DNA from: Promethearchaeota archaeon | GTDB taxonomy: Archaea; Asgardarchaeota; Lokiarchaeia; Sigyniarchaeales; SOKP01 | Length of the DNA: 29,554 nucleotides | Reading direction: 5' to 3' | Assembly: GCA_048938445.1 (NCBI GenBank) | Contig: JBHLME010000041.1 | Coordinates: 4,704-34,257, forward strand | Shown here: one piece after another, positions 1,977 to 28,160 of the stretch | Numbering within the stretch: position 1 is the first letter of the stretch | How the letters are laid out: every line of letters starts with the position of its first letter | Position numbers and translations under genes: made by a program | Notes under the pieces: generated by a model | The model's database searches: none | Told to the model about the DNA's origin: nothing | The model's input: the letters and a program-made list of their open reading frames with translations, nothing else

Positions 1977-2510
1977 ATGTTAATAGCCCCCACTCAACAA
2001 GAAAAGATCTTGAAAATTATAGTAGCAGGTAATTCCGGTGTAGGGAAGACTACACTTTTAAAGCGATATGTTGAAGGAAAATTCATGCAAGCGTCTAAAA
2101 TGACTGTTGGAGTCGATCATTTCATTAAAGAATTACAGCATTCCAATACATTATGTAAAATGCAATTATGGGACTTAGGTGGTCAAGATAGATTTCGATA
2201 CATCGTAGATATCGCATTGCGCGGAACTCAAGGTGCGTTATTATTGTTTGATGTTACGAATTATAGCAGCTTTCTCTCCCTGGATAAATGGGTCAAGTTA
2301 TTACGTTCTCAAGATAAAGAATTACCTATCCTCTTAATTGCAACAAAATGCGACCTTTATGAGTTCTCCGTGGTTAAGAATGTTCTCATTCCTAAAATAG
2401 TAAAAAGAAATCAAATGTGTGATTATATTGAAACCTCTTCAAAAACTGGGCAAAATATCGAAAAAGTTTTTGAATCTCTTATTTCATATTTAATTACCCC
2501 TAAAGTCTAA
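1977..2510 (+). CDS. Rab/Ras-superfamily small GTPase (Asgard type, no C-terminal prenylation motif)
   Basis: G1 GNSGVGKT, G2 TVGVDH, G3 WDLGGQ followed by RFR, G4 variant TKCD, G5 ETSSK. Ends LITPKV with no Cys. Confidence 0.93.
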   Translation: MLIAPTQQEKILKIIVAGNSGVGKTTLLKRYVEGKFMQASKMTVGVDHFIKELQHSNTLCKMQLWDLGGQDRFRYIVDIALRGTQGALLLFDVTNYSSFLSLDKWVKLLRSQDKELPILLIATKCDLYEFSVVKNVLIPKIVKRNQMCDYIETSSKTGQNIEKVFESLISYLITPKV

Positions 2511-3359: not shown

Positions 3360-4337
3360 TTATTTATCAGTTGAAAAATGTTTAAGAAATTGATCTTTTT
3401 TTTCTTTTGACATGCGAATGGTATTGATAAGGGAGGGATCTATACGAAATGCGGAGAGATTCTGGTAAAATTTTATGGGGAGCTTGTTTTGAACACACCA
3501 TTTAGCAAGTTCGACATCATCCTTTAATATTTCAAAATGTTCATAAAATTCATAAGAAGCATTATTTTGAAACCCCCATTTTGCTAACTCTGGAGCTTCT
3601 TTCAACTTATTGAAGTTATCATAGAAAACTTTATGAACTCGATTTTGAAAGGCCCACTTAGCTAACTCCGGATTCTCCTTAAATTTATCGAAATTATTAA
3701 AAAAATCTACATGACTACCCCAATACCACACGGGCGCAGAGTTTCGAAGAACCCATTTTGTAAGCTTTATATTTTTCATTAATTTATCAATATTGTTAAA
3801 AAAAGCTGGAGGGAGATCGTAATAAATGCCTTGAAGTATTATCTTCACAGTTGGAGATTTTACTGAATTAGAAAGGAGTTTAATTTCTTCAAATGAAAAA
3901 TTGTCAAGATACCCTTCTTTATGCAAGTAAATCACCACGTTATCATTGCCCTCTTCCAGCCGATATATTATCTCTTCTTTAAAGACTCTCTTGGCAACGG
4001 GATCCCCTATTTCCGTCAATTTTTTTAGCAAGGGAAATGCCAAATTTCTGTGAAGGAGTCGAGTGTCATAATCATTTTCAACCCAGGCGTGTATGTTCGA
4101 ACAATGTCCCCAAAATTCTTGTTCAGGACTTATGTCTAATTCCTTGTACGTGTTAGATCGATCGTTTTCCTCCATCTCATCTATAGATTGAATGTCATCA
4201 AATTCGTGAACTTCATCAATGGGAAAATTAAAAGCAAGATACTTGCATTGCTGGAATAAATGTTCATCTAAATAGATATTAGTATTAATCCCTTCCAACT
4301 TGAGCGTGATATAAGCGTTAATCTTGAATTCTTTCAT
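3360..4337 (-). CDS. Lokiarchaeal-type conserved N-terminal domain protein (family usually LRR-linked) with C-terminal ~26-aa helical repeats
   Basis: 'EFKINAYITLKLE...FQQCKYL...EQEFWGHCSNIHAWVENDYDTRLLHRNLAFPLLKKLTEIGDPVAKRVFKEEI' matches a domain I recall as expanded in Lokiarchaeia. The C-terminal repeats are directly visible. Confidence 0.75.
   Translation of the reverse strand: MKEFKINAYITLKLEGINTNIYLDEHLFQQCKYLAFNFPIDEVHEFDDIQSIDEMEENDRSNTYKELDISPEQEFWGHCSNIHAWVENDYDTRLLHRNLAFPLLKKLTEIGDPVAKRVFKEEIIYRLEEGNDNVVIYLHKEGYLDNFSFEEIKLLSNSVKSPTVKIILQGIYYDLPPAFFNNIDKLMKNIKLTKWVLRNSAPVWYWGSHVDFFNNFDKFKENPELAKWAFQNRVHKVFYDNFNKLKEAPELAKWGFQNNASYEFYEHFEILKDDVELAKWCVQNKLPIKFYQNLSAFRIDPSLINTIRMSKEKKDQFLKHFSTDK
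3429..3818 (-). repeat. Intragenic tandem protein repeat, ~26 aa x ~4.5 (consensus F(Y/F)xNFxKLKExPELAKWxxQN)
   Basis: Conserved Trp at aa 195, 228, 254, 280 and unit-initial Phe at aa 179, 212, 238, 264, 290. Confidence 0.85.
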
Positions 4338-4776: not shown

Positions 4777-7539
4777 TTATTTCCTTCCTAATTTGATAAT
4801 CATTACAATTACAGTACTTATAAGCCCTATAATTATAACAATGAAAATTATATCAGCTATATCTAATCCATTTAAATTATTATTATTTGAACTTATATTG
4901 AAATCAATTTTAATGCTCGTCTGTGGATCAGTAATAATGAATGTTTCGGTTTTATCTTGCGTTCCGATTATTATTGTATCACCATAATTGAAATTCAAGA
5001 TCGACAAATCAAACTCGTAATGATTATCCATAACATCTATTATTATAGATTCACCATTAGTGATATCTATAACCATTAAATTATATACTCCTTGTACATC
5101 ACCAAATATATAGAACGCTGGAGATGAACTTGCGAATAGTTGCACTTCTTTCACGTGCCACCATTGATTTTGACTGTTATAAGTTCCCGTTATTTTGATG
5201 AACCTTACCTTGGAATTGATCACGTCCCACTGCCACGATTTATGCTCTCCTGAGGTTTTATCCACGACAAGCGTCCAAGTCGTATTGTCCGTGGAAATTT
5301 CAATTTTATATTGATAATATCGATTATCCCCGTCCCAAAAATGGGTTTTAATTGCCCTAATATCATAATTACATGGTAATTCAATGTAAAGTGAATTACC
5401 AAGATCATTTGAAGCATATGTAGTGTCATCATCATCGACCATCTTACCGGCATCAGAGCTTCCATGTGCAATAGAATTAATTATAGGAGTACGGTAAAAT
5501 ACGAGTTCTTGTTCGTATGTGTTTTCGAGACCCCACAAATCCGTTGTTTCTATACGAATCGCATGAGTTCCAATATTATAATCAAACGTGTTTATTTTAA
5601 GTTCGGAAATCGTATCAGAATTGACAAGCCATTCCTTAAAACACAAATCTTCTACATGTTCTCCATCAAGATACCATGAAGCTCTCGTAATTAATTGGGC
5701 GTTTGAAATGCATTGTCCGAAATAAAGTGTCCTTGAAACGCTTGAAGTAGGTGTGGTATATCCAGATATTATAATGTCGCTCGTCGTGGGAATGATATCC
5801 AGATCTTCATTAAAATAATCACATATTCCTTTAAAAATGGCTAGAGCAATCTTGCTTCGAAGATTGATATTTGAGATTAAATTAAAATCTTCCTGATTCG
5901 AAAGGAATACAGGATATACCATTACAGAAGGCATGTTCGTGTTAGAAAGTTCATCAAAATGCCTACCAAGCGTGGTATAATCCCCTTTAGCACCTCTATT
6001 CGTTGTTTCTAAATCTGAAACTATTCGAGTTTGGATGTTGCTTGCAAGGTTAAGTCCATTGACAGAGTATGAAACATCACTTTCAGCCCAATAATAAGTC
6101 TCAGAACCTCTTGTTGCTGTTGATGAATCAAGATTATTACATTGAAGGCTCACAAAAATATCAGCATTATTATCATTTGCAGTAGCGCACCTTTGATCGA
6201 TTGAGACTGCTATATCAGAATCTCTTGTCATTAAAACTGAAGCACCTGCGTATAACAACATTTCTTTCAAGCGTAAACCAACATCAAGATTGAAATCTTC
6301 TTCATTTGGAAATGCAGGACCATCAATCCCGAGAACTCCTGTTTCTGCACCACCATCTCCAGGATCTATGCATATTATCTTTCCTGTCAATGAATTTGAT
6401 ATTTCAGAAAATTTGGAAATAATTAAAGACCAAATATCCGATGTTTCATAACCAAGAGCCCAAAATCCAACTCCTCGAAGATTAATTAAATTAACGTAAT
6501 CAAATTTTAATCCTAAAGATTCTGAATCTTCATACCAACATTGATGCCATTCAGATCCATCTTGATATCGATACCATGGTGTATGTGAGTTAGAATCCCA
6601 AATTCTCCCATATGTTTGAGCATTAATAATAGCATTTCTCAATAAAACACTTACACCAGAACCTATAGTTGAGGCTCCCGCTATACTTGAAGAACAAGGC
6701 CAATCATATCCATAGAAAGGAACTCCTAAGATAATTTGCGAATTTAAGTAATAATTTGTCAATCTATTCACAGAATCAACAATATCAAATTGATTTGGAT
6801 CATCATAAGGAGACACTGCTCCTGTAGTTGGACCACTTCTCCAATGGTAATCATAACCCATGAGGAATACCGCATCAGTATATTGAGATAAATAATTATT
6901 ACGATATATGCTTTCAACACTTCCTGAAACACAAAAAGATATATGATTATTAGGATTAGCAGTTTTGAGAGTATTAAATAGAATTTCCATTAATTGTTCA
7001 AATAATAATAAATTTGAACCTCCTGTAAGGGAATTAGTTGGATTCGGAAATTCAAAGTCCAAATTTACCCCATCAACATTATATGTTTCTAAAACATCTA
7101 AAACATTATTAGCAAAATCATTTTTATGATATGCAAATATACTGTCTTGAGTATTTTGATCAAAACAAGTGATACATATTGTTATTTTAACACTATTTTG
7201 TTGAGCATTTGTTTTTACCGTATTAAATTGGGCAATTCCTGGTGGTGATAACGTTCCATCACTATTTGCGCCCCAAGAAAAATATGCGATATATGTCAGG
7301 GCATCCCAATTTGGTTCATAGGAAGAAGGATTGGTCCAATAAGGCCAAAATCCATAAGTTAGTTTATTTCCCTCTAAATTTGATCTCTTCGGAGTCAAGT
7401 TATCAATATCATTGTTGTTTTCATAAAATTCAGAGATTATAGGATAATTTGATAATGATGAAATATATGTTATTAAAATACACGCAATTAAAACAATACA
7501 AATTTTTCCAGAGCTCTTTTTATTAATCAAATTTATCAC
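4777..7539 (-). CDS. Membrane-anchored GH18 glycoside hydrolase + inactive Amidase_3 domain + Ig-like region + F5/8 type C (discoidin) domain + C-terminal TM anchor
   Basis: N-terminal hydrophobic segment. GH18 motifs DGVNLDFE (D156/N159/D161/E163), LMGYDY, LGVPFYGYDW, GVGFWALG. Amidase-fold domain from aa ~385 with DPGDGG/SLQCN/MVYPVF. Discoidin region ~5131-5480. C-terminal IIFIVIIIGLISTVIVMII-KLGRK. The true start may be TTG at 7530, since the called GTG lies inside an AGGTGAT SD. Confidence 0.88.
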   Translation of the reverse strand: MINLINKKSSGKICIVLIACILITYISSLSNYPIISEFYENNNDIDNLTPKRSNLEGNKLTYGFWPYWTNPSSYEPNWDALTYIAYFSWGANSDGTLSPPGIAQFNTVKTNAQQNSVKITICITCFDQNTQDSIFAYHKNDFANNVLDVLETYNVDGVNLDFEFPNPTNSLTGGSNLLLFEQLMEILFNTLKTANPNNHISFCVSGSVESIYRNNYLSQYTDAVFLMGYDYHWRSGPTTGAVSPYDDPNQFDIVDSVNRLTNYYLNSQIILGVPFYGYDWPCSSSIAGASTIGSGVSVLLRNAIINAQTYGRIWDSNSHTPWYRYQDGSEWHQCWYEDSESLGLKFDYVNLINLRGVGFWALGYETSDIWSLIISKFSEISNSLTGKIICIDPGDGGAETGVLGIDGPAFPNEEDFNLDVGLRLKEMLLYAGASVLMTRDSDIAVSIDQRCATANDNNADIFVSLQCNNLDSSTATRGSETYYWAESDVSYSVNGLNLASNIQTRIVSDLETTNRGAKGDYTTLGRHFDELSNTNMPSVMVYPVFLSNQEDFNLISNINLRSKIALAIFKGICDYFNEDLDIIPTTSDIIISGYTTPTSSVSRTLYFGQCISNAQLITRASWYLDGEHVEDLCFKEWLVNSDTISELKINTFDYNIGTHAIRIETTDLWGLENTYEQELVFYRTPIINSIAHGSSDAGKMVDDDDTTYASNDLGNSLYIELPCNYDIRAIKTHFWDGDNRYYQYKIEISTDNTTWTLVVDKTSGEHKSWQWDVINSKVRFIKITGTYNSQNQWWHVKEVQLFASSSPAFYIFGDVQGVYNLMVIDITNGESIIIDVMDNHYEFDLSILNFNYGDTIIIGTQDKTETFIITDPQTSIKIDFNISSNNNNLNGLDIADIIFIVIIIGLISTVIVMIIKLGRK
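4915..6370. repeat. Copy 1 of ~1.45 kb duplicated module (pseudo-amidase/Ig-like/discoidin)
   Basis: Aligns to 8134-9589 at a constant offset of 3219 bp; 5153-5266 is identical to 8372-8485 (114 bp). Boundaries are approximate. Confidence 0.95.
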
Positions 7540-7594
7540 CTATATTATTTGTTTTTCTCAAAGGTTTTCAAATTAAATGAAAAATGATTTTAAT

Positions 7595-7604
7595 AAAAAA
7601 AAAA
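7595..7604 (-). terminator. Oligo-T (T10) tract, candidate archaeal terminator/attenuator between amidase and GH18 genes
   Basis: A10 on the + strand just downstream of the stop at 7612. AT-rich background lowers significance. Confidence 0.35.
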
Positions 7605-7611
7605 TATATAT

Positions 7612-10377
7612 TTAGTATTCAAACTTACATTTCGTACACACTCTTTTTGACTCATAAACTTTTTTAGGATAATAACTTATAACTTGATTTTTATCGACGA
7701 TTAATTTAATATCTCTTCCTTTAGCGTTACATCTTGGACATTGGAGGTTCTGGTTTAATCCAGAATATATATTTAAATAATTGTTAGCTGGATTTTGATT
7801 AGAAACATTTAATGATGAGTAATCATTATTTTTAATATTTTCTGTAATTTTTTCCGTATTTTGATAAATGTTTGTTTGTTGATTTTTTTGGGTATTTAAT
7901 GAACTTATCAACCTTGAAGTAGAATTATCTTTACGATAAATCTTATTCTCTTTTAATTTTGAACTGACATCTTTAGAAGATTTTTTCTTAGTATAAGCAA
8001 TACCCAATGTTAAAATAACTACTGATAAACCTACAATTATTAGAATATATATCAAATATTGTATATAATCTATAGGAATATCCGGATTTTCTGGTTCTGA
8101 TGAATCACTGTTTATGATTAGATCGATTTTTTTGCTCGTTTGTGGATCAATGACAATGAATGTTTCGGTTATATCTTGAAAAATGATTTGTATCGTATCA
8201 CCATAATTGAAATTCAAGGTCGATAAATCAAATTCATACCATTCCTCTATAACTTCAATCATCATTGATTGACCATTTGTAAGATCTGTGAACGTAATAT
8301 TATCCCCTCCTTGTACATCACCATATACATAGAACGCTGGAGAAGTTCGTGCGAATAATTGAACCTCTTTTACGTGCCACCATTGATTTTGACTGTTATA
8401 AGTTCCCGTTATTTTGATGAACCTTACCTTGGAATTGATCACGTCCCACTGCCACGATTTATGCTCTCCTGAGGTTTTATCCACGGCAAGCGTCCATGTC
8501 GTATTGTCCGTGGAAGTTTCAATTTTATATTGATAATATCGATTATCCCCGTCCCAAAAATGGATCTTAATTGCCCAAATATCATAATTACATGGTAATT
8601 CAATGTAAAGTGAACTACCAAGATCATTTGAAGCATATGTAGTGTCATCATCATCGACCATCTTACCGGTATCAGAGCTTCCATGTACTTTAGAATCAAT
8701 TATGGGAGTACGGTAAAATGCGAGCTCTTGTTCGTATGTGTTTTCGAGATCCCACAAATCCGTTGTTTCTATACGAATGGAATGAGTTCCAATATTATAA
8801 TCAAACGTGTTTATATTAAGTTCGGAAATCGTATCAGAATTGACAAACCATTCTTTAAAACACAAATCTTCTACATGTTCTCCATCAAGATACCATGAGG
8901 CTCTCGTAATTAATTGGGCGTTTGAAATGCATTGTCCGAAATAAAGTGTCCTTGAAACGCTTGAAGTAGGTGTGGTGTATCCAGATATTATAACGTCACT
9001 CGTCGAGGGAATGATATCCAGATCCTCATTAAAATAATCACAGATCCCTTTAAAAATGGCTAGAGCAATCTTGCTTCGAAGATTGGGATTTGAAATTAAA
9101 TTATAATCTTCCTGATTTGAAAGGAAAACAGGATATACCATTACAGAAGGCATGTTCGTGTTAGAAAGCTCATCGAAATGCCTATCAAGCGTGGGATAAT
9201 CCCCTTTAGCTCCCCTGTTCGTTGTTCCTAAATCTGACACTATTCGAGTTTGGATGCTACTTGCAAGGTTAAGTCCATTGACAGAGTATGAAACATCACT
9301 TTCAGCCCAATAATAAGTCTCAGAACCTCTCGTTGCCGTTGATGAATCAAGATTATTACATTGAAAGCTCACAAAAATATCTGCATCATTATTATTAGCA
9401 GTAGCACACCTTTGATCGATTGAGACGGTTATATCAGAATCTCTTGTCATTATAACCGTGCCACCTGCGTATAACAACATTTCTTTCAATCGTAAACCAA
9501 CATCAAGATTGAAATCTTCTTCATTTGGAAACGCAGGACCATCAATCCCGAGAACACCCATATCAGTACCACCATTTCCGGGATCAATGCAAATTCTTTT
9601 ATCTTCTATTCCATCAGAAGGATCTGAAGGAAAAACTGGTGTAACTCCAAAATAACTACAAATCCCTCTATAAATACCTACTGCAGCTTTATAACGGTTG
9701 TTAGCGATAGAAATGTAGTTAAAATCATCTTGATTTGACATGAATACACATTCGGGTAATGCTGCGGGCATATCAGTGTTACTAAGAACATATAAATGAT
9801 AGGTTAAATAAGGATAATCCATTTTTATTCCCCTATCGATCCTCCCCATCTCTAATATTAATCCTTTTTGGATACCATCAGCTAATCTTCTTCCATTTAC
9901 TGAATATACAGAACTACTTTCACCCCAATAGAGGGTTTCAGTACCTTTTGCAGCAGAATTAGAATTAGCATTATTATGAACACTAACAAAAATGTCTGCA
10001 CTATTGCTATTTGCGATACTGCATCTAGATGCAAGTGATACAGTTGTATCACTAGTTCTCGTCATGATGACCGTGGCTCCAGCATATATTAATAGATCTC
10101 TTAGGTGTAAAGAAATATCAAGATTGATATGTTTTTCATCAGGATATCCTGATCCATCAATTCCTGTTGTTCCTGATTCAGTACCTCCATGGCCTGGATC
10201 AACACAAATTTTTTTACCTGATAAAATGGCAGATGATTTTAATTCTTCATTTCGAGAATCTTTACTTTTATCAACTAATAATCCTGTATTTAATGTGTTT
10301 ATAGATATGAAAATAAGAAAATTTGTAGTAATTATACAAATGATTATTATTACAATCGAAATCTTTTTTGATTTCAT
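7612..10377 (-). CDS. Membrane-anchored N-acetylmuramoyl-L-alanine amidase (Amidase_3, intact) + inactive Amidase_3 + Ig-like + discoidin + TM + cytoplasmic C4 zinc finger
   Basis: Domain 1 has all four canonical residues: H63 (DPGHGG), E81 (DEKHINL), H134 (SVHNNA), E209 (LPECVF). Domain 2 has N268/E286/Q339/Y415. N-terminal TM/signal, TM at ~7992-8067, Lys/Asn-rich linker, terminal CPRC...CTKC. Confidence 0.9.
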   Translation of the reverse strand: MKSKKISIVIIIICIITTNFLIFISINTLNTGLLVDKSKDSRNEELKSSAILSGKKICVDPGHGGTESGTTGIDGSGYPDEKHINLDISLHLRDLLIYAGATVIMTRTSDTTVSLASRCSIANSNSADIFVSVHNNANSNSAAKGTETLYWGESSSVYSVNGRRLADGIQKGLILEMGRIDRGIKMDYPYLTYHLYVLSNTDMPAALPECVFMSNQDDFNYISIANNRYKAAVGIYRGICSYFGVTPVFPSDPSDGIEDKRICIDPGNGGTDMGVLGIDGPAFPNEEDFNLDVGLRLKEMLLYAGGTVIMTRDSDITVSIDQRCATANNNDADIFVSFQCNNLDSSTATRGSETYYWAESDVSYSVNGLNLASSIQTRIVSDLGTTNRGAKGDYPTLDRHFDELSNTNMPSVMVYPVFLSNQEDYNLISNPNLRSKIALAIFKGICDYFNEDLDIIPSTSDVIISGYTTPTSSVSRTLYFGQCISNAQLITRASWYLDGEHVEDLCFKEWFVNSDTISELNINTFDYNIGTHSIRIETTDLWDLENTYEQELAFYRTPIIDSKVHGSSDTGKMVDDDDTTYASNDLGSSLYIELPCNYDIWAIKIHFWDGDNRYYQYKIETSTDNTTWTLAVDKTSGEHKSWQWDVINSKVRFIKITGTYNSQNQWWHVKEVQLFARTSPAFYVYGDVQGGDNITFTDLTNGQSMMIEVIEEWYEFDLSTLNFNYGDTIQIIFQDITETFIVIDPQTSKKIDLIINSDSSEPENPDIPIDYIQYLIYILIIVGLSVVILTLGIAYTKKKSSKDVSSKLKENKIYRKDNSTSRLISSLNTQKNQQTNIYQNTEKITENIKNNDYSSLNVSNQNPANNYLNIYSGLNQNLQCPRCNAKGRDIKLIVDKNQVISYYPKKVYESKRVCTKCKFEY
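8134..9589. repeat. Copy 2 of ~1.45 kb duplicated module
   Basis: Colinear with 4915-6370 (offset 3219 bp), with scattered substitutions. Boundaries are approximate. Confidence 0.95.
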
Positions 10378-10875
10378 AATAAATATACCTATTTTTTTTT
10401 GTTGTTTTTTCTTGGTAAATTAGATTTTAATATAGGTGTTTATTTTCAAATATAAACTGTGTACTATTATGTAAATATTTTTTAAACAAATCCCTAGTTT
10501 TCATATGAAAAATAGGAAAAGTGAGAATCGATCAATCTTAGTAACTAAAAAATAATGAAGATCAGTTCAATATTTCAGTTCTCGTTTTTTATAATCATCT
10601 ATGGGATTTAAATATCAAACTTTTATTGTAATTCTTCAATTTTATTCAAATTGATTCTATATTTTATATCTCGATTTAATGCTTAAAGTTATTAAATTAT
10701 ATTTTGTTTATTGTAGGAACTTCCTATTAAAACCTCCTGGTATTTACTTATTCTTCACGATACAACTAAGAAGGAAGCATCATTGTTGAATATCATAGTG
10801 AGAAAACATTCAAGGGTTATTCATAAATATAAGTGATTCTAATTATTATATGTTAGACGAAAACTTGGTTTTATA

Positions 10876-16365: not shown

Positions 16366-17721
16366 ATGAAACCTAGACAACAAACAGCATTATTCGTATT
16401 AATTGCTGTAATATCTACTGCAGGTATCGTGGGGGGTATCATGTATGTTCTTCTTAATCCTGCGACTCCAGAAGGGAACTCTATTGAAATATATCATTGG
16501 TGGACATCAGGTGGAGAAGCTACTGCAATAAACGGATTAATAGATGTATTTGAAGCGAATTATCCTGGAACGACTGTATATTCAGTTCAGATTGCTGGAG
16601 GTGCTGGAGCAGAAATGAGAACTAAAATCAAAACGTTAATGATTGCAGGAGAACCACCAGATACGTTTCAAATACATGCCGGATATGAATGGAAAATTTT
16701 CTATGAGGGAGGATTCTTGGAACCTATAAATGATATTTGGACACCAGAATTACAAAGTGTTATACCAGACGTTATAGAAGATATGAACAAAGGTCCCGAT
16801 GGAAATTATTATTCTGTACCTGTTAATATTCATAGAAGTAACTTAATCTGGTATAATAAACATATTCTAGATAACAACGGAATTGATCCTGCAACATTAA
16901 CAACGTGGAATGCATTTTTTTCAGCTTGCCAAACTATACAGGCTAATAATTTTAGTGTTTCAGGTAGTCCTGTTGCAATGGGGAAAACTTGGACAGAAGT
17001 ACATGCTTTCGAAACTATAATGGCAAGCCAAGGAATGAATGCTTATGAAGCTTGGATTAATGGTGATATTGATAGCACGGGGGCCACTTATTATCCTGAT
17101 CTACTCCAAGCTTGTATTGATTTCGACAACTTGACAAGTAATTATATCAATTCTGATTATGTAGGAATAGATTGGGACAGCGCTCTAGCAAAAATAATTT
17201 CAGTTATTTCACCTACTGCTGCTTTTAGTATAATGGGTGATTGGGCTGATGGAGAATTTCAACAGGCGGGATGGACATTTAATACAGATTATGGTGTAAT
17301 ACCTGTTCCAGGGACAAATAACACTTATGGGCTTGTAGTAGATTGTTTCGAAAAACCAAAAAATATCGAACACCCTACAAATGTGGGTAGATGGTTAACT
17401 ACAGTCAGTTCTGTAGCAGGTCAAGATGCATTCAATCCTTCGAAAGGATCAATTCCTGCACGAACTGATTGCAATGTATCACTCTATGGACCTTATCAAC
17501 AATGGGCAATGTCAGATTTTAGTATTGTTGATGCTTCTGGAACCTTTTTTCCATCAGTTGCTCATGGAAGTGGTATACCTGAAGAGTTTGCTACAGATTT
17601 AGGACCTATCATTGGATCTCTTACAGCTGGTTCAATAACTCCTGCTCAAGCAGCAACTCAAATTGTAGCTTTAGCTGTAACATATAGCACTGATTTCACG
17701 AGAATATGGGCGTTAGATTAA
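16366..17721 (+). CDS. Carbohydrate ABC transporter substrate-binding protein (glucose/mannose-binding type, CUT1)
   Basis: N-terminal TM anchor; 'EIYHWWTSGGE', 'PPDTFQIHAG', 'VPVNIHRSN', 'IMGDWADG', 'FNPSKGSIPARTD', 'PSVAHG'. Confidence 0.92.
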   Translation: MKPRQQTALFVLIAVISTAGIVGGIMYVLLNPATPEGNSIEIYHWWTSGGEATAINGLIDVFEANYPGTTVYSVQIAGGAGAEMRTKIKTLMIAGEPPDTFQIHAGYEWKIFYEGGFLEPINDIWTPELQSVIPDVIEDMNKGPDGNYYSVPVNIHRSNLIWYNKHILDNNGIDPATLTTWNAFFSACQTIQANNFSVSGSPVAMGKTWTEVHAFETIMASQGMNAYEAWINGDIDSTGATYYPDLLQACIDFDNLTSNYINSDYVGIDWDSALAKIISVISPTAAFSIMGDWADGEFQQAGWTFNTDYGVIPVPGTNNTYGLVVDCFEKPKNIEHPTNVGRWLTTVSSVAGQDAFNPSKGSIPARTDCNVSLYGPYQQWAMSDFSIVDASGTFFPSVAHGSGIPEEFATDLGPIIGSLTAGSITPAQAATQIVALAVTYSTDFTRIWALD

Positions 17722-17749
17722 ATGATGTATAATTTAAAATTTTTAAATC

Positions 17750-17762
17750 TTCTTTTTTTTTT
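17750..17762 (+). terminator. Oligo-T tract after the SBP gene (partial intra-operon terminator)
   Basis: TTC followed by T10 (17753-17762), ~30 nt after the stop codon, preceded by an AT palindrome at 17732-17748. Confidence 0.45.
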
Positions 17763-17800
17763 ATTATTGATTTAACTTAATAAATGATAAAGGTGACAAA

Positions 17801-18772
17801 ATGAAAGCATTGAAAAAAGAACACTGGAATACTAATAAAAGTATTTTAATTAATATAAATGGAATCCCTAAGACAAAATGGATAATGAAATCAATCTTTG
17901 CTAGGGATAAATTCATAATTAGGTTAATTTTCATTATTTCTTGTATTTTAATTATATATTTCGTTTATTTTTTCATAGTTTGGAATGTAATCGTGTCATT
18001 GACAGGTTGGGAAGGATTAGTTCAAACTTATGATTTTATTGGTCTTGAAAATTATTCTCAAATGAGCCAGGATTACGTTTTTTGGACTTCATTACTAAAC
18101 AACTTCATATTTATGGGAATATTTATCCCTTCTAGTATTATTTTAGGTCTTTTGTTAGCTATAATATTAGATCAAAAGGTTAAAAGAGAAGGATTTTTTA
18201 GGTTGATCTATCTGCTCCCCTATGCCCTTTCATTTGTAGTTACGGCATATTTATGGCAGTGGATGTTTACTAGTGATGGTGTATTAAATATTTTAATTGA
18301 TGCAATAGTACCTGGAACTATCGAAATATCTTGGTTAGGAAATCGCTATTTAGCACTTGTAAGTATTTCAATTGCTATGATTTGGCAATTTTCTGGTTAT
18401 GTAATGTTGGTTTTTTTAGCAGGAATAAGATCAGTTCCCCCTTCTATTATTATGGCTGCTAGGATAGATGGTGCTTCTGGATTTAAATTATATACCCGTA
18501 TAATTATTCCACAAATTAAAACTTCTGCATTTACAGCTTTTGTTATTCTTATGATTTTTACATTAAAAGCCTTTGATTTTATTTATCTATTAACTGGTGG
18601 TGGTCCGGGATATGGTACTTATATTCTTCCAATTATGATGTACGAAGAAGCTTTTGCAAAAAATCAATTTGCTTATAGTTCAACTATCGCTACGACCTTA
18701 TTGATAGTCGTTATGATGATAACCATTCCTTATCTTTACATTACATACAGAAAGAGGGATAATCAAAAATGA
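17801..18772 (+). CDS. Carbohydrate ABC transporter permease 1 (MalF/UgpA-like)
   Basis: 'FIGLENY', EAA-loop variant 'AARIDGASGFKLYTRIIIP', 'LTGGGPG'; AGGTGA SD upstream. Confidence 0.93.
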   Translation: MKALKKEHWNTNKSILININGIPKTKWIMKSIFARDKFIIRLIFIISCILIIYFVYFFIVWNVIVSLTGWEGLVQTYDFIGLENYSQMSQDYVFWTSLLNNFIFMGIFIPSSIILGLLLAIILDQKVKREGFFRLIYLLPYALSFVVTAYLWQWMFTSDGVLNILIDAIVPGTIEISWLGNRYLALVSISIAMIWQFSGYVMLVFLAGIRSVPPSIIMAARIDGASGFKLYTRIIIPQIKTSAFTAFVILMIFTLKAFDFIYLLTGGGPGYGTYILPIMMYEEAFAKNQFAYSSTIATTLLIVVMMITIPYLYITYRKRDNQK

Positions 18773-19686
18773 CTTTAGATAATATGATTGAGATGATCAA
18801 TTCAGAATTAGATAATGAAATGGTATTTTCTATAAAGAATAACTCGAAAACAATATTATTCTATAAAATAAAGCGAACAATTAAACGTGTGACCCTTTAT
18901 GTGTTTTTAATTATAATGGCAATTATAATGTTCATACCCTTATGGTCTGGAATCATAGCTGCTTTCAAATCTCAAGCAGAATTATCTTTAACATCACCGC
19001 TTTTACCCTCGTTAAGTCCAACATTAGATCCTCTTACTGCAGCTATGAATGAATTGATGAGACCCATGCTGAATTCATATCTATTCACGTTTATGGCAAC
19101 AATCGGATCTTGTTTGATAGGATCTATATGTGGGTTTGTATTAACAAAATTAAAATTTAAAGGATCTAACATCGTGTTTCTTTTCCTTATAATAGGAATT
19201 TTTCTTCCATATCAATCAATTATAATCCCTCTTTTTATAACAATAAGGGATTTAGGATTATATGATTCTCTATGGGGTATGACTGTGGTACACATAATAT
19301 ATGGAATTCCAATAACAACATTACTTTTTAGAAGCTATTATGAGAACATACCGGATAACTTGTTAAACGCAGCTAAGGTTGATGGTGCTGGAATAATGAC
19401 CATTTATAGGCGGATTATCCTCCCGTTATCTCCTCTACCTTTTGTCGTAGCAGCGGTTTTTCAATTTACAACAATTTGGAATGATTATCTCTTTGCTTTG
19501 ATACTCACAGGATCAGATTTTGAACCCGCTTCATTTGCACTTTCAAACCTTGCTGGAGGAACAGAAACAGCATGGAATAATACGATGGCAGGAGCTCTCT
19601 TATATTCATTACCAATTATATTTATTTTTATATTTTTAGGTAAATATTTAATGCAAGGATTAATAGCAGGAGCGATAAAAGGATAG
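18769..19686 (+). CDS. Carbohydrate ABC transporter permease 2 (MalG/UgpE-like)
   Basis: 'IPDNLLNAAKVDGAG', 'FTTIWNDYLFAL', 'GLIAGAIKG'; ATGA overlap with the previous gene. Confidence 0.93.
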   Translation: MTLDNMIEMINSELDNEMVFSIKNNSKTILFYKIKRTIKRVTLYVFLIIMAIIMFIPLWSGIIAAFKSQAELSLTSPLLPSLSPTLDPLTAAMNELMRPMLNSYLFTFMATIGSCLIGSICGFVLTKLKFKGSNIVFLFLIIGIFLPYQSIIIPLFITIRDLGLYDSLWGMTVVHIIYGIPITTLLFRSYYENIPDNLLNAAKVDGAGIMTIYRRIILPLSPLPFVVAAVFQFTTIWNDYLFALILTGSDFEPASFALSNLAGGTETAWNNTMAGALLYSLPIIFIFIFLGKYLMQGLIAGAIKG

Positions 19687-19698
19687 GAGTGATTTAAA

Positions 19699-20805
19699 AT
19701 GGTAAACGTAAAAATAAAGAATTTAGTGAAGAAATATGGTAAAACAATAGCAGTAAATCATGTAAATTTAGAAGTCAAAGATGGTGAATTATTTATACTA
19801 CTTGGACCATCTGGATGTGGAAAATCCACTACGCTTTTAAGTATTGCTGGATTGATTAATCCAGAAGAAGGTGAGATTTGGTTTGGAGATAAAATAATTA
19901 CTGATGCAAGTAGGAATTATTTTCAAAGGCCACAAGATAGAAACGTTGCAATGGTTTTTCAAGATTATGCAATTTATCCCCACTTGACGGTTTTTAAGAA
20001 TATTGCATTCCCTTTACAAGTTAGAAAAGTTGAATCAGAAAAAATTAATAAATTAGTTACTGAAGTTGCGAAGAGTCTAGATATTGAAAATCTGTTAGAA
20101 AGGAAACCAAGGCAATTAAGTGGTGGCCAAAGGCAAAGAGTAGCTCTGGCAAGAGCAATTGTTAGGCAACCTAATATCTTCTTGATGGATGAACCCCTTT
20201 CTAATCTTGATGCAAAATTGAGAGTATTTGCTCGAGCAGAATTAAAAAAAATGCATAAAAAATTAGGTATAACTATCATTTATGTAACTCACGACCAAAT
20301 CGAGGCATTATCTATGGGGAATACTATTGCTATTTTAAATAATGGTAATTTAGAACAAGTAGATACACCAGATAATATATATAATCGTCCAAAAAATATT
20401 TTCGTGGCGGGATTCATTGGAAGTCCCCCAATGAATATGATTGATGGTACTATTGAAAAAAATAATGATGAACTATTCATCAATGTTTATTTTAAAAAAT
20501 TAAAACTTAATAAAAATCTAGAGAAAGATAAATACATTATATATGATAAAATAATCTTAGGGATAAGACCAGAAGATATTTTATTATCGAAAAATAACAC
20601 CAATAATTCTGTCGAGGCAAAAATTGATATTATAGAACCAATGGGGAGAGAATTTGAAATTCATTTGCTTATAGGTAATAAACCAATTATTATGGTCTCC
20701 AAAATTATTGATGATATGAAGGTTGGTGATATTGTGTATCTCCATTTTAATAATGAAAAATTCCACGTGTTTGATAAAGAATCAGGTGAAAATATCTTTA
20801 CATGA
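19699..20805 (+). CDS. Carbohydrate ABC transporter ATP-binding protein (MalK/UgpC family, C-terminal TOBE)
   Basis: Walker A GPSGCGKS, Q-loop MVFQDYA, signature LSGGQ, Walker B FLMDEP, H-loop YVTHDQ, FIGSPPMN, LGIRPED. Confidence 0.96.
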   Translation: MVNVKIKNLVKKYGKTIAVNHVNLEVKDGELFILLGPSGCGKSTTLLSIAGLINPEEGEIWFGDKIITDASRNYFQRPQDRNVAMVFQDYAIYPHLTVFKNIAFPLQVRKVESEKINKLVTEVAKSLDIENLLERKPRQLSGGQRQRVALARAIVRQPNIFLMDEPLSNLDAKLRVFARAELKKMHKKLGITIIYVTHDQIEALSMGNTIAILNNGNLEQVDTPDNIYNRPKNIFVAGFIGSPPMNMIDGTIEKNNDELFINVYFKKLKLNKNLEKDKYIIYDKIILGIRPEDILLSKNNTNNSVEAKIDIIEPMGREFEIHLLIGNKPIIMVSKIIDDMKVGDIVYLHFNNEKFHVFDKESGENIFT

Positions 20806-26859: not shown

Positions 26860-27429
26860 TCAACTAATCTTCTTAGTGTTGAAAAGATATACAAAGTTTG
26901 TAATTACTGCGCTAATTGGAATGCTAAAAAGAATAATTAATCTAGCCCCTTCAATCTCAAATAGAAGCATGAGTATTGCTCCTAACGCTATGATAATCGC
27001 TCCAGATGTTTGAGTAATATACTTTTCTTTATACGCAATCCACAAAAGGAAAAAAACATATGGAACATTAAATACAAGCCCAGTTATTACTCCTGGAAAA
27101 TAATCGCTAAATATAATTGTCAAAAAAAAATGGAAAAACGCGTTAGAAAACTGTGCTGCTGCGAGTAAGGTTAAAATGAAGTATGCATTTGTACGATTAG
27201 GCTGGAGAGTGAATAAGATAAGCAAGATAATATATACTATTATGATGAACAAATAAGTTATTAAAAAATTAATAAGACTCAAATCCACTCCAAAGTGCCT
27301 ATATATGTAATTGGAAAAGCCAAATACTCCTTCTTCAATGATATGTATCACAAAAATTAAGGGTGAAAACCAAATTGCTTTTTTAAATGTGAAGTTATGG
27401 AATAAATTTTCAATGCTAAATTTGCTCAT
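26860..27429 (-). CDS. HXXEE domain membrane protein (paralog 1)
   Basis: 'VIHIIEE', 'NAFFHF', 'YFPGVITG'; multi-TM. Confidence 0.88.
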   Translation of the reverse strand: MSKFSIENLFHNFTFKKAIWFSPLIFVIHIIEEGVFGFSNYIYRHFGVDLSLINFLITYLFIIIVYIILLILFTLQPNRTNAYFILTLLAAAQFSNAFFHFFLTIIFSDYFPGVITGLVFNVPYVFFLLWIAYKEKYITQTSGAIIIALGAILMLLFEIEGARLIILFSIPISAVITNFVYLFNTKKIS

Positions 27430-27575: not shown

Positions 27576-28160
27576 TCATTTCTTACTTTTAGATTTGAAA
27601 TAATAAATAATGTTTGTTGCTACTACTATAATTACTGAGATTACTAGTGTTGCTATTTGAAGACCTGGTAACTCAAATAAAAACATGAGCGTAAATCCTA
27701 ATAATACGATGAGAATAGCCGTAGTTTTTGTGATAAATTCATCTTTATAAGCAATCCACAAGAGAATGCTCACATAGGGGACATATAATGCAAAACCAGT
27801 AACTACACCTGGACAATATTCCATGAAGACAATAGTCCAATATAAATGGAAGAACGCATTAAAAAACTGTGCTGCAGTGAACAAGGTTAAAACAAAGAAT
27901 GCATTTGCACGATTAGGTCGAAGAGTGAATAAGATAAGTAAGACAATATAAACTAACATTATGAACATGTTCGCTATTAGAAAACCGGGAAGACCGAAAT
28001 TTACTGATAAACCTCTATGTATAGCCACGAAATCGTAAAAACGAAATACTGCCTCTTCAATCATATGAAACAAATAAAGGATAGGTGCGAGCCAAACTGC
28101 CTTTTTAAATGGAACCTTATCCAGTGTTGTTTTAATTTTTGAAATACTCATTTTACTCAT
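27576..28160 (-). CDS. HXXEE domain membrane protein (paralog 2)
   Basis: 'LFHMIEE', 'NAFFHL', 'YCPGVVTG'; colinear with paralog 1 (FKKA.W..P, LLILFTL.PNR.NA, AAQF.NAFFH). Confidence 0.88.
   Translation of the reverse strand: MSKMSISKIKTTLDKVPFKKAVWLAPILYLFHMIEEAVFRFYDFVAIHRGLSVNFGLPGFLIANMFIMLVYIVLLILFTLRPNRANAFFVLTLFTAAQFFNAFFHLYWTIVFMEYCPGVVTGFALYVPYVSILLWIAYKDEFITKTTAILIVLLGFTLMFLFELPGLQIATLVISVIIVVATNIIYYFKSKSKK

Follow-up and report, generated by a model that had tools for sequence, protein, structure and literature searches.

What keeps a cell-wall-degrading domain in place once it has lost the residues needed for its chemistry, and what could such a domain do in an archaeon? The question is raised by two adjacent minus-strand open reading frames (ORFs), genes A and B, in a 29,554-nt stretch of contig JBHLME010000041.1 (hereafter the window; G+C content about 30%). 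The host genome, labelled G000 in our comparisons, belongs to the Promethearchaeota (Asgard archaea), which to our knowledge make no peptidoglycan. Both genes carry an Amidase_3 domain in which three of the four zinc-binding and catalytic positions are replaced (the dead domain). Our analysis identifies this 192-residue domain as a maintained pseudoenzyme, for which we tentatively propose a role in non-catalytic peptidoglycan recognition. The genes and their Amidase_3 domains are as follows.

7612..10377, minus strand: gene A (P0001, 921 aa), from ORF, Pfam, hydrophobicity and structure model
9640..10221, minus strand: gene A domain 1, Amidase_3 with intact H63/E81/H134/E209 (Pfam 159.6 bits)
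9028..9603, minus strand: gene A domain 2, dead Amidase_3 with N268/E286/Q339/Y415 (Pfam 134.9 bits, alignments, AlphaFold2 model)
4777..7539, minus strand: gene B (P0002, 920 aa), from ORF, Pfam and hydrophobicity
5809..6384, minus strand: gene B dead Amidase_3 with D395/E413/Q466/Y542 (Pfam 132.2 bits; 90% identical to gene A domain 2)

An amidase domain with three of its four catalytic positions replaced

The H-E-H triad is the zinc-binding signature of Amidase_3, and Glu is critical for activity, according to PMC7694207. Translation yields H63, E81, H134 and E209 for the first domain of gene A, N268, E286, Q339 and Y415 for the second, and D395, E413, Q466 and Y542 for the copy in gene B. 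In HMMER alignments to the solved amidases Cwp6 (5j72), AmiC2 (5emi) and CwlD (7rag), N268 lies opposite the His of GHGG, E286 opposite the ligand Glu, Q339 opposite the second His and Y415 opposite the Glu of the '..E..F' strand. The dead copies are therefore without the His-Glu-His zinc triad (N/D268, E286, Q339), and their catalytic Glu is replaced by Tyr (Y415 in A, Y542 in B). Since two zinc-ligand His residues and the general-base Glu are missing, the ancestral reaction should be gone, and amidase activity has in all likelihood been lost. Three dead copies are known, each with three of the four catalytic positions replaced: NEQY in gene A, DEQY in gene B and NEQY in a congener, G004.

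Despite these replacements, the domain is readily recognized by the family profile, with PF01520 scores (cut-off 27 bits) of 159.6 for gene A domain 1, 134.9 for domain 2 and 132.2 for the gene B copy; Pfam reports Amidase_3 in two stretches of P0001 (E 1.2e-87) and at residues 389-573 of P0002 (E 4.6e-37). The two dead copies in the window are 90% identical (173/192), domains 1 and 2 of gene A 53% (101/191), and the dead copies share 52-53% with the live domain of gene A. An AlphaFold2 (AF2) model of the dead domain, built on a 31-row alignment, reached a mean predicted local distance difference test score (pLDDT) of 93.2 and a predicted template-modelling score (pTM) of 0.91. Foldseek superposed it on CwlV (1jwq) with template-modelling (TM) scores of 0.87/0.93 and a root-mean-square deviation (rmsd) of 1.5 Å, on AmiC2 (5emi) with an rmsd of 1.4 Å and on 4rn7 of C. 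difficile with 1.9 Å (TM range 0.86-0.93), so that the model can confidently be assigned the canonical Amidase_3 fold. Of the 43 columns with a conservation of 80% or more across 27 intact domains, 35 are unchanged in every one of the three dead copies, among them E286, T311-R312, N328, N341, G351-E353-T354, R388-G389 and N421; the eight changed columns are H268, D272 (one copy), A275, L320, H339, V403, L413 and E415.

The original prediction, made on the window alone, had listed these catalytic residues, and translation and alignments bear it out at every position. Its quoted motifs (IMTRDSD, ADIFVS, GSETYYW, MP..VF.SN, GIDG, YSVNG, GICDYF) are all present, and its claim that three of four zinc/catalytic residues are lost within a preserved fold agrees with the substitutions, the AF2 model, its superposition on CwlV and AmiC2, and the 35 retained columns. 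Its boundaries for the gene A copy (9028-9603) were exact; the gene B copy, placed at ~5810-6387, spans 5809-6384.

The dead domain is under purifying selection

To gauge constraint we used gene B of G000 and its orthologue in G004 (locus L005, with an identical 899-aa frame in L088), for which the ratio of nonsynonymous to synonymous substitution rates (dN/dS, NG86) was 0.154 in the dead domain (bootstrap 0.089-0.245). For the same pair, the ratio was 0.20 in the GH18 domain (0.13-0.31), 0.21 in the middle region, 0.12 in the F5/8C domain and 0.33 in the last ecto-domain; between the paralogues A and B, it was 0.18 in the dead domain. The dead domain is thus under purifying selection, with a dN/dS no higher than in the adjoining GH18 and CBM32-like domains, and the neutral decay that would have spoken against a retained function is not seen in either comparison. 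Since the conserved core is kept and dN/dS does not exceed that of the neighbours, the domain is a maintained pseudoenzyme rather than a decaying one.

One cassette under two catalytic heads

The remaining features of the two proteins are listed below.

8689..9027, minus strand: beta-rich middle region, gene A residues 451-563 (no Pfam match; low-confidence model)
8359..8688, minus strand: F5/8 type C domain, gene A residues ~564-673 (26.6 bits, just below the 28.2 cut-off)
7987..8073, minus strand: membrane-spanning segment, gene A residues 769-797 (Kyte-Doolittle scan)
7615..7764, minus strand: Zn ribbon (CPRC...CTKC) of the gene A tail (conserved in the protein of a related genome, G020; recurs in the genome)
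6448..7347, minus strand: GH18 domain, gene B residues 65-364 (Pfam Glyco_hydro_18)
5146..5463, minus strand: F5/8 type C domain, gene B residues 693-798 (34.1 bits, above the 28.2 cut-off)
4783..4875, minus strand: membrane-spanning segment, gene B residues 889-919 (Kyte-Doolittle scan)

Gene A encodes, in order, an N-terminal hydrophobic segment, the intact Amidase_3, the dead Amidase_3, a beta-rich middle region that is conserved among archaeal relatives, the F5/8C domain, a small beta domain, a membrane anchor and a cytoplasmic tail of ~125 residues with a C-terminal CPRC...CTKC Zn ribbon. Gene B begins with an N-terminal hydrophobic segment and a GH18 domain, continues with the dead Amidase_3, the middle region, F5/8C, a small beta domain and a membrane anchor, and ends right past this anchor, without the Zn-ribbon tail. 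Given the N-terminal hydrophobic and C-terminal membrane segments seen in Kyte-Doolittle scans, the catalytic and binding domains of both proteins should form a cell-tethered, extracellular ectodomain.

The two heads differ. Over its whole length, gene A domain 1 can be aligned with CwlV-type amidases, and it matches the signature residues of the solved amidases exactly (HMMER), and is presumed to be an active N-acetylmuramoyl-L-alanine amidase. The GH18 domain of gene B scores 109 bits against a cut-off of 29.6, and its motif DGVNLDFE, compared with DxxDxDxE, keeps the catalytic Glu and two Asp residues, with the middle Asp changed to Asn. Its full-length relatives in the PDB include the cortex-lytic SleL/YaaH (4s3j, 4s3k) and YdhD (3cz8) besides true chitinases, and its substrate, judged from sequence, stays open between chitin and the glycan of peptidoglycan. 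As for the F5/8C domain, its modelled structure matches the CBM32 chains 7d29, 4a42_B and 5zu6 (TMt 0.62-0.74), within a model of only moderate quality overall (mean pLDDT 67.6, about 80-88 in the F5/8C part); together with the profile scores, this supports its assignment as a predicted CBM32-like carbohydrate-binding module.

Genes A and B hence share a cassette of dead amidase, beta-rich region and CBM32-like F5/8C. Nucleotide identity between them is 90-98% from the first codons of the dead domain through the end of F5/8C (~8359 in A, ~5146 in B), drops to 70-80% past F5/8C, and then to nil. Within G000, the dead copies of A and B are closer to each other than the B copy is to its own orthologue (100/92 in the tree described below). 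The shared tract points to gene conversion, or to the cassette having been copied again recently. Assemblies of other sequencing runs break at this repeat and yield short contigs only, with one 2119-base contig of run X1 bridging 6283-8401, from gene B into gene A; the pieces listed for runs X3, X4 and X5 show no base changes relative to the window, one of them having a 1-base insertion. The contig of the congener G004 likewise ends at the repeat, which cuts off its gene A.

Genes A and B also enclose three ORFs of 83-143 aa on the opposite strand or in another frame (9992-10423, plus strand; 8439-8699 and 5220-5471, minus strand). Two of them are the same frame of the duplicated cassette, and most likely all three are open merely by chance in this AT-rich DNA.

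The ~45-residue Zn ribbon of gene A recurs C-terminally in seven other ORFs of G000 (L104-L110; E 1.6e-12 to 4e-3). The six that were read span 185-317 aa, have no membrane segment in a hydrophobicity scan, and most look coiled-coil- or low-complexity-like. No Pfam family scored over its cut-off for the ribbon, the best being zf_CopZ (19 bits versus 28.4).

Origin of the dead domain

The hydrolase locus is a rare accessory locus. Amidase_3 is present in 4 of 61 sampled relatives, G000 counted, and a search of 154 genomes of the order recovered relatives of the dead domain in 3. Within G000, a genome profile scan recovered only the three Amidase_3 domains described here and one GH18. A near-length word search for similar proteins returned only three, and a metagenome scan with the dead domain gave a single distant locus at 28% identity (L099, on the same contig as L092, labelled Treponema sp.). 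The gene B orthologue in G004, a second species at 80% identity, reads N-E-Q-Y.

The nearest proteins elsewhere, from Thermoplasmata/Thermoplasmatota archaea and metagenomes, have the same tail and a single intact amidase. The GH18-amidase-tail layout occurs with an intact amidase in P0006, P0007 and L091; for P0004 (L089, L090), precomputed Pfam matches list GH25, Amidase_6, SH3_3 and F5/8C besides the amidase. In relatives, what stands at the position of the dead domain is either an intact amidase (P0006, P0007, L091) or, in G020, a D-E-H-E domain, from which it follows that the unit descends from a genuine peptidoglycan-binding enzyme. The motifs GIDG, YSVNG and GICxYF had been read as private idiosyncrasies betraying descent from the neighbouring domain. 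They also occur in the intact single-domain Thermoplasmata relatives (L089-L091, P0004) and, being family-wide, characterise the subfamily and prove no such descent by themselves.

G020 (L004/L007), a member of the same family but of a different genus, encodes a single 1244-aa chain, P0005, composed of GH18, an H-E-H-E Amidase_3, a D-E-H-E Amidase_3, the tail, an anchor and the same Zn ribbon. It may possibly represent the ancestral fused form and an intermediate toward the dead domain. In a maximum-likelihood tree of 19 Amidase_3 domains, the six Promethearchaeota domains form one clade (94/97), in which the live domain of gene A pairs with the first domain of G020 (95/90). The dead trio is fully supported (100/100) on a stem of 0.36 changes per site and joins the D-E-H-E domain of G020 weakly (87/59). 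Approximately unbiased (AU) tests, which were marginal and used groups named after the tree was seen, gave p 0.048 when the gene A live domain was held with the dead trio and p 0.11 when the two G020 domains were held together. Of the proposed origin by duplication of the neighbouring active domain, the common subfamily and the tandem duplication are supported by the tree. Because both domain types occur in one chain in another genus, the duplication is probably older than the A/B locus. In the order of events that we favour but regard as unproven, a tandem duplication would have preceded the split of the two genera, the first His would then have been lost (to Asp), H to Q and E to Y would have followed in the genus of G000, and a split into two genes would have left each with the cassette.

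Possible functions of the dead domain

What might the domain be kept for? Our preferred reading, which we hold tentatively and stop short of calling probable, is that it serves in non-catalytic peptidoglycan recognition. It would bind peptidoglycan at the N-acetylmuramic acid (MurNAc)-stem-peptide region, as the ancestral enzyme did, and would act with the CBM32-like module to keep the catalytic heads on bacterial cell-wall material or to orient them there, both proteins being tethered to the Promethearchaeota cell surface by the C-terminal anchor. We favour this reading because the domain descends from a MurNAc-peptide-binding enzyme, because most of its conserved core survives along with a polar pocket, because it is conserved as strongly as its working neighbours, and because it serves two different wall-related heads, both of peptidoglycan-related kinds (an intact amidase in A; in B, a GH18 with SleL/YaaH and YdhD relatives).

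Several observations weigh against it. Everything searched contained only three dead copies, in two genomes, and two of these are homogenised paralogues, so that the selection estimate comes down to essentially one orthologue pair. Variable sites among the dead copies are as frequent within 6 residues of catalytic positions (12/52) as elsewhere (32/140; odds ratio 1.0), and 3 of 15 lineage-specific fixed changes fall within that distance (Fisher p 0.76); by these tests, both crude one-dimensional proxies, there is no sign in the sequences that the old active-site region is either specially constrained or specially remodelled. Conserved positions adjacent to the groove have changed (A275V, V403E, Y396T), and ancestral ligand contacts may for this reason have been lost. 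Finally, the CBM32-like module of the same cassette could do the targeting alone.

The evenness of purifying selection across the domain, with no focus on the old pocket, would also fit an inert structural module, that is, a folded spacer or stalk with no ligand of its own that distances the head from the membrane or stabilises neighbouring domains. The dead domain does sit between the head and the remaining ectodomain in both proteins, and the CBM32-like module provides the cassette with another candidate for binding. We nevertheless consider a spacer unlikely: an alpha/beta domain of 190 residues held at a dN/dS of 0.15 is an expensive one, relatives (P0006, L091) need just one amidase domain in that place, and an intact one, and the replacements are not random but polar and near-isosteric (H to N/D, H to Q), with the polar pocket kept.

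Could the domain instead act on its neighbours? As a pseudoenzyme partner, it would dock on one of the heads (intact amidase or GH18), within its own chain or across the two proteins, and regulate or stabilise it in the manner of degenerate LytM factors. We rate this as very unlikely, since the end-to-end alignment of domain 1 with CwlV-type amidases leaves no obvious need for an activator, and the same dead domain also stands behind the unrelated GH18 head. CwlV-type amidases are not known to have the inserted autoinhibitory helix of AmiA/B/C. On the other side, the dead or degenerate copy directly follows the intact one in gene A and G020, and Amidase_3 enzymes often need partner proteins (PDB 7tj4, LytH-ActH; 7rag, CwlD-GerS; 8c0j, AmiB-EnvC; and PMC9245657).

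A pocket of changed chemistry is another long shot. Formed by N/D268, E286, Q339, E403 and Y415, it might bind a hard metal or another glycan or peptide, or support another catalysis: all replacements are oxygen-donor side chains, V403E, which became fixed on the same branch, adds a further Glu, and the D-E-H-E intermediate of G020 may remain an enzyme. However, we found no precedent for such a change, the general-base Glu is replaced by Tyr, and the first position varies between N and D among the copies, which speaks against a precise metal site. Most improbable is a recently inactivated, functionless remnant heading for loss, for which the rare and patchy gene family (3/154 genomes of the order) and the long stem of the dead copies (0.36 changes per site) might be adduced, but which is at odds with a dN/dS of 0.15 (0.09-0.25) no higher than in neighbouring functional domains, with intact frames and 35/43 conserved columns kept, and with an NEQY state retained in a second species at 80% identity.

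Peptidoglycan recognition thus remains the reading that we prefer. A bolder version of it, to which we give little credence, casts the cassette as an Asgard surface receptor or adhesin gripping the peptidoglycan of a partner or prey, wired in gene A and G020 through the membrane to the cytoplasmic Zn ribbon and so coupling contact to an intracellular scaffold; the Zn-ribbon module also ends apparently soluble, coiled-coil-like proteins of G000. If true, the lineage closest to eukaryotes would have an archaeal counterpart of the transmembrane receptors that sense peptidoglycan.

Comparison with known pseudo-hydrolases

Non-catalytic peptidoglycan recognition proteins (PGRPs) are amidase-derived peptidoglycan sensors that have lost their zinc ligands and whose binding has been demonstrated. 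They have the Amidase_2 fold, whereas genes A and B match Amidase_3 only and have no Pfam match to Amidase_2, so the resemblance is one of analogy only. RipD of M. tuberculosis reportedly has an NlpC/P60 domain adapted to non-catalytic peptidoglycan binding, likewise a cell-wall hydrolase domain turned binding module, though of an unrelated fold and in a bacterial host. The degenerate LytM factors EnvC and NlpD are dead peptidoglycan-hydrolase domains of the M23 fold that bind an amidase rather than the wall. They resemble the present case in combining a dead hydrolase domain in a non-catalytic role with Amidase_3 enzymes (PDB 8c0j) and differ in fold.

Within Amidase_3 itself, the closest likeness is to mycobacterial CwlM (Ami2, Rv3915), described in PMC7694207 as a homologue that is apparently not catalytically active and has a non-hydrolytic job, as a regulator of MurA. 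CwlM is cytoplasmic, has no secretion signal and activates MurA in a phosphorylation-dependent manner; the dead domain here, in contrast, is archaeal, is fused to hydrolase heads, and is flanked in the chain by a hydrophobic segment toward the N-terminus and a membrane anchor toward the C-terminus. PG_binding_1, the family of CwlM-type repeats, has no Pfam match in genes A and B.

To see how often Amidase_3 signatures degenerate, we surveyed 184 domains in 153 proteins (the best 150 representatives plus those of this study). H-E-H-E was read in 145, 17 were gapped at a signature column, and 22 were complete but non-canonical, 4 of these belonging to the A/B gene family and 18 to others. The latter include R-E-S-T, R-E-G-A, S-D-R-Y and H-E-H-Y, several of them in triple-Amidase_3 proteins, of which three are named from Clostridium and Oceanirhabdus. 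In the secreted-type clostridial multi-amidase proteins (P0012-P0014, P0031, P0040; Clostridium ganghwense, C. brassicae, Oceanirhabdus seepicola), two or three Amidase_3 domains stand in tandem, the last copy reading H-E-H-E and upstream copies R-E-S-T, R-E-G-A or S-D-R-Y. They combine dead and live copies in the same layout as here but differ in their independent origin, substitutions, Big_4/Big_5 partners and bacterial hosts, and are annotated only as amidases. Dead-plus-live Amidase_3 tandems are a recurrent and apparently undescribed pattern: our literature searches found no paper on the degenerate copies of clostridial multi-amidase proteins, no extracellular dead Amidase_3 among reports on inactive, degenerate or non-catalytic amidases, and only unrelated papers on Asgard archaea and peptidoglycan amidase.

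Archaea without peptidoglycan have been found to encode modular peptidoglycan hydrolases with binding domains, which PMC12352652 reads as antibacterial weapons; in its main text, 'Asgard', 'Lokiarch', 'PF01520' and 'inactive' do not occur. Unlike the freely secreted hydrolases described there, the products of genes A and B are anchored in the membrane, and they include a dead catalytic domain.

Host assignment and genomic surroundings

The G000 genome comprises 4.6 Mb and is 96.5% complete with 8.2% contamination. Bacterial contamination of the contig was considered and rejected, given a Promethearchaeota-like class I aminoacyl-tRNA synthetase and a Ras-family GTPase in the window. The best full-length match of the synthetase has 81% identity and comes from Promethearchaeota genomes, and its top matches (66-89% identity) are nearly all archaeal metagenome-assembled genomes, most of them labelled Promethearchaeota or other Asgard. 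Ras-family GTPases are typical of Asgard archaea, consistent with the host assignment.

1977..2510, plus strand: Ras-family small GTPase (Pfam Ras, E 2.2e-41)

The locus was contained in 11 DNA-type sequencing runs from 5 studies, mostly labelled sediment metagenome, and RNA runs were absent among the runs listed.

A four-gene ABC sugar-type importer (16366-20805, plus strand) lies ~6 kb from the hydrolase genes and consists of SBP_bac_1, two BPD_transp_1 permeases and a MalK-like ATPase with OB/TOBE domains. That it takes up wall fragments is only a guess. MurQ (TIGR00274) and NagA (TIGR00221) had no match over their cut-offs in the 96.5% complete G000 genome, so these two families lend no support to released amino sugars feeding a canonical MurNAc/N-acetylglucosamine (GlcNAc) pathway. 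Directly downstream of gene B, a 325-aa ORF (3360-4337, minus strand) has no Pfam match and contains repeats ending '...ELAKW' or '...LTKW'. Further away, two paralogous neighbour genes with an HXXEE domain (PF13787) occupy 26860-27429 and 27576-28160, both on the minus strand.

Implications

Pseudo-hydrolase domains are already known in cell-wall biology, CwlM included. The novelty of the present case lies in its archaeal host and membrane tethering, in a single dead-amidase cassette that two different heads share, and in the intermediate carried by a sister genus. Should the dead domain bind peptidoglycan, it would clearly exemplify the conversion of an Amidase_3 enzyme into a wall-recognition module, parallel to the Amidase_2-derived PGRPs of animals, and could be used as a compact peptidoglycan probe. 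The H-E-H-E, D-E-H-E and N/D-E-Q-Y states in related genomes form a small natural series from enzyme to pseudoenzyme. More broadly, the locus draws attention to proteins for cell-wall degradation that are tethered to the membrane, a rare set among Asgard archaea, and gives a concrete, testable way into the question of how these archaea make physical contact with bacteria, feed on them or attack them.

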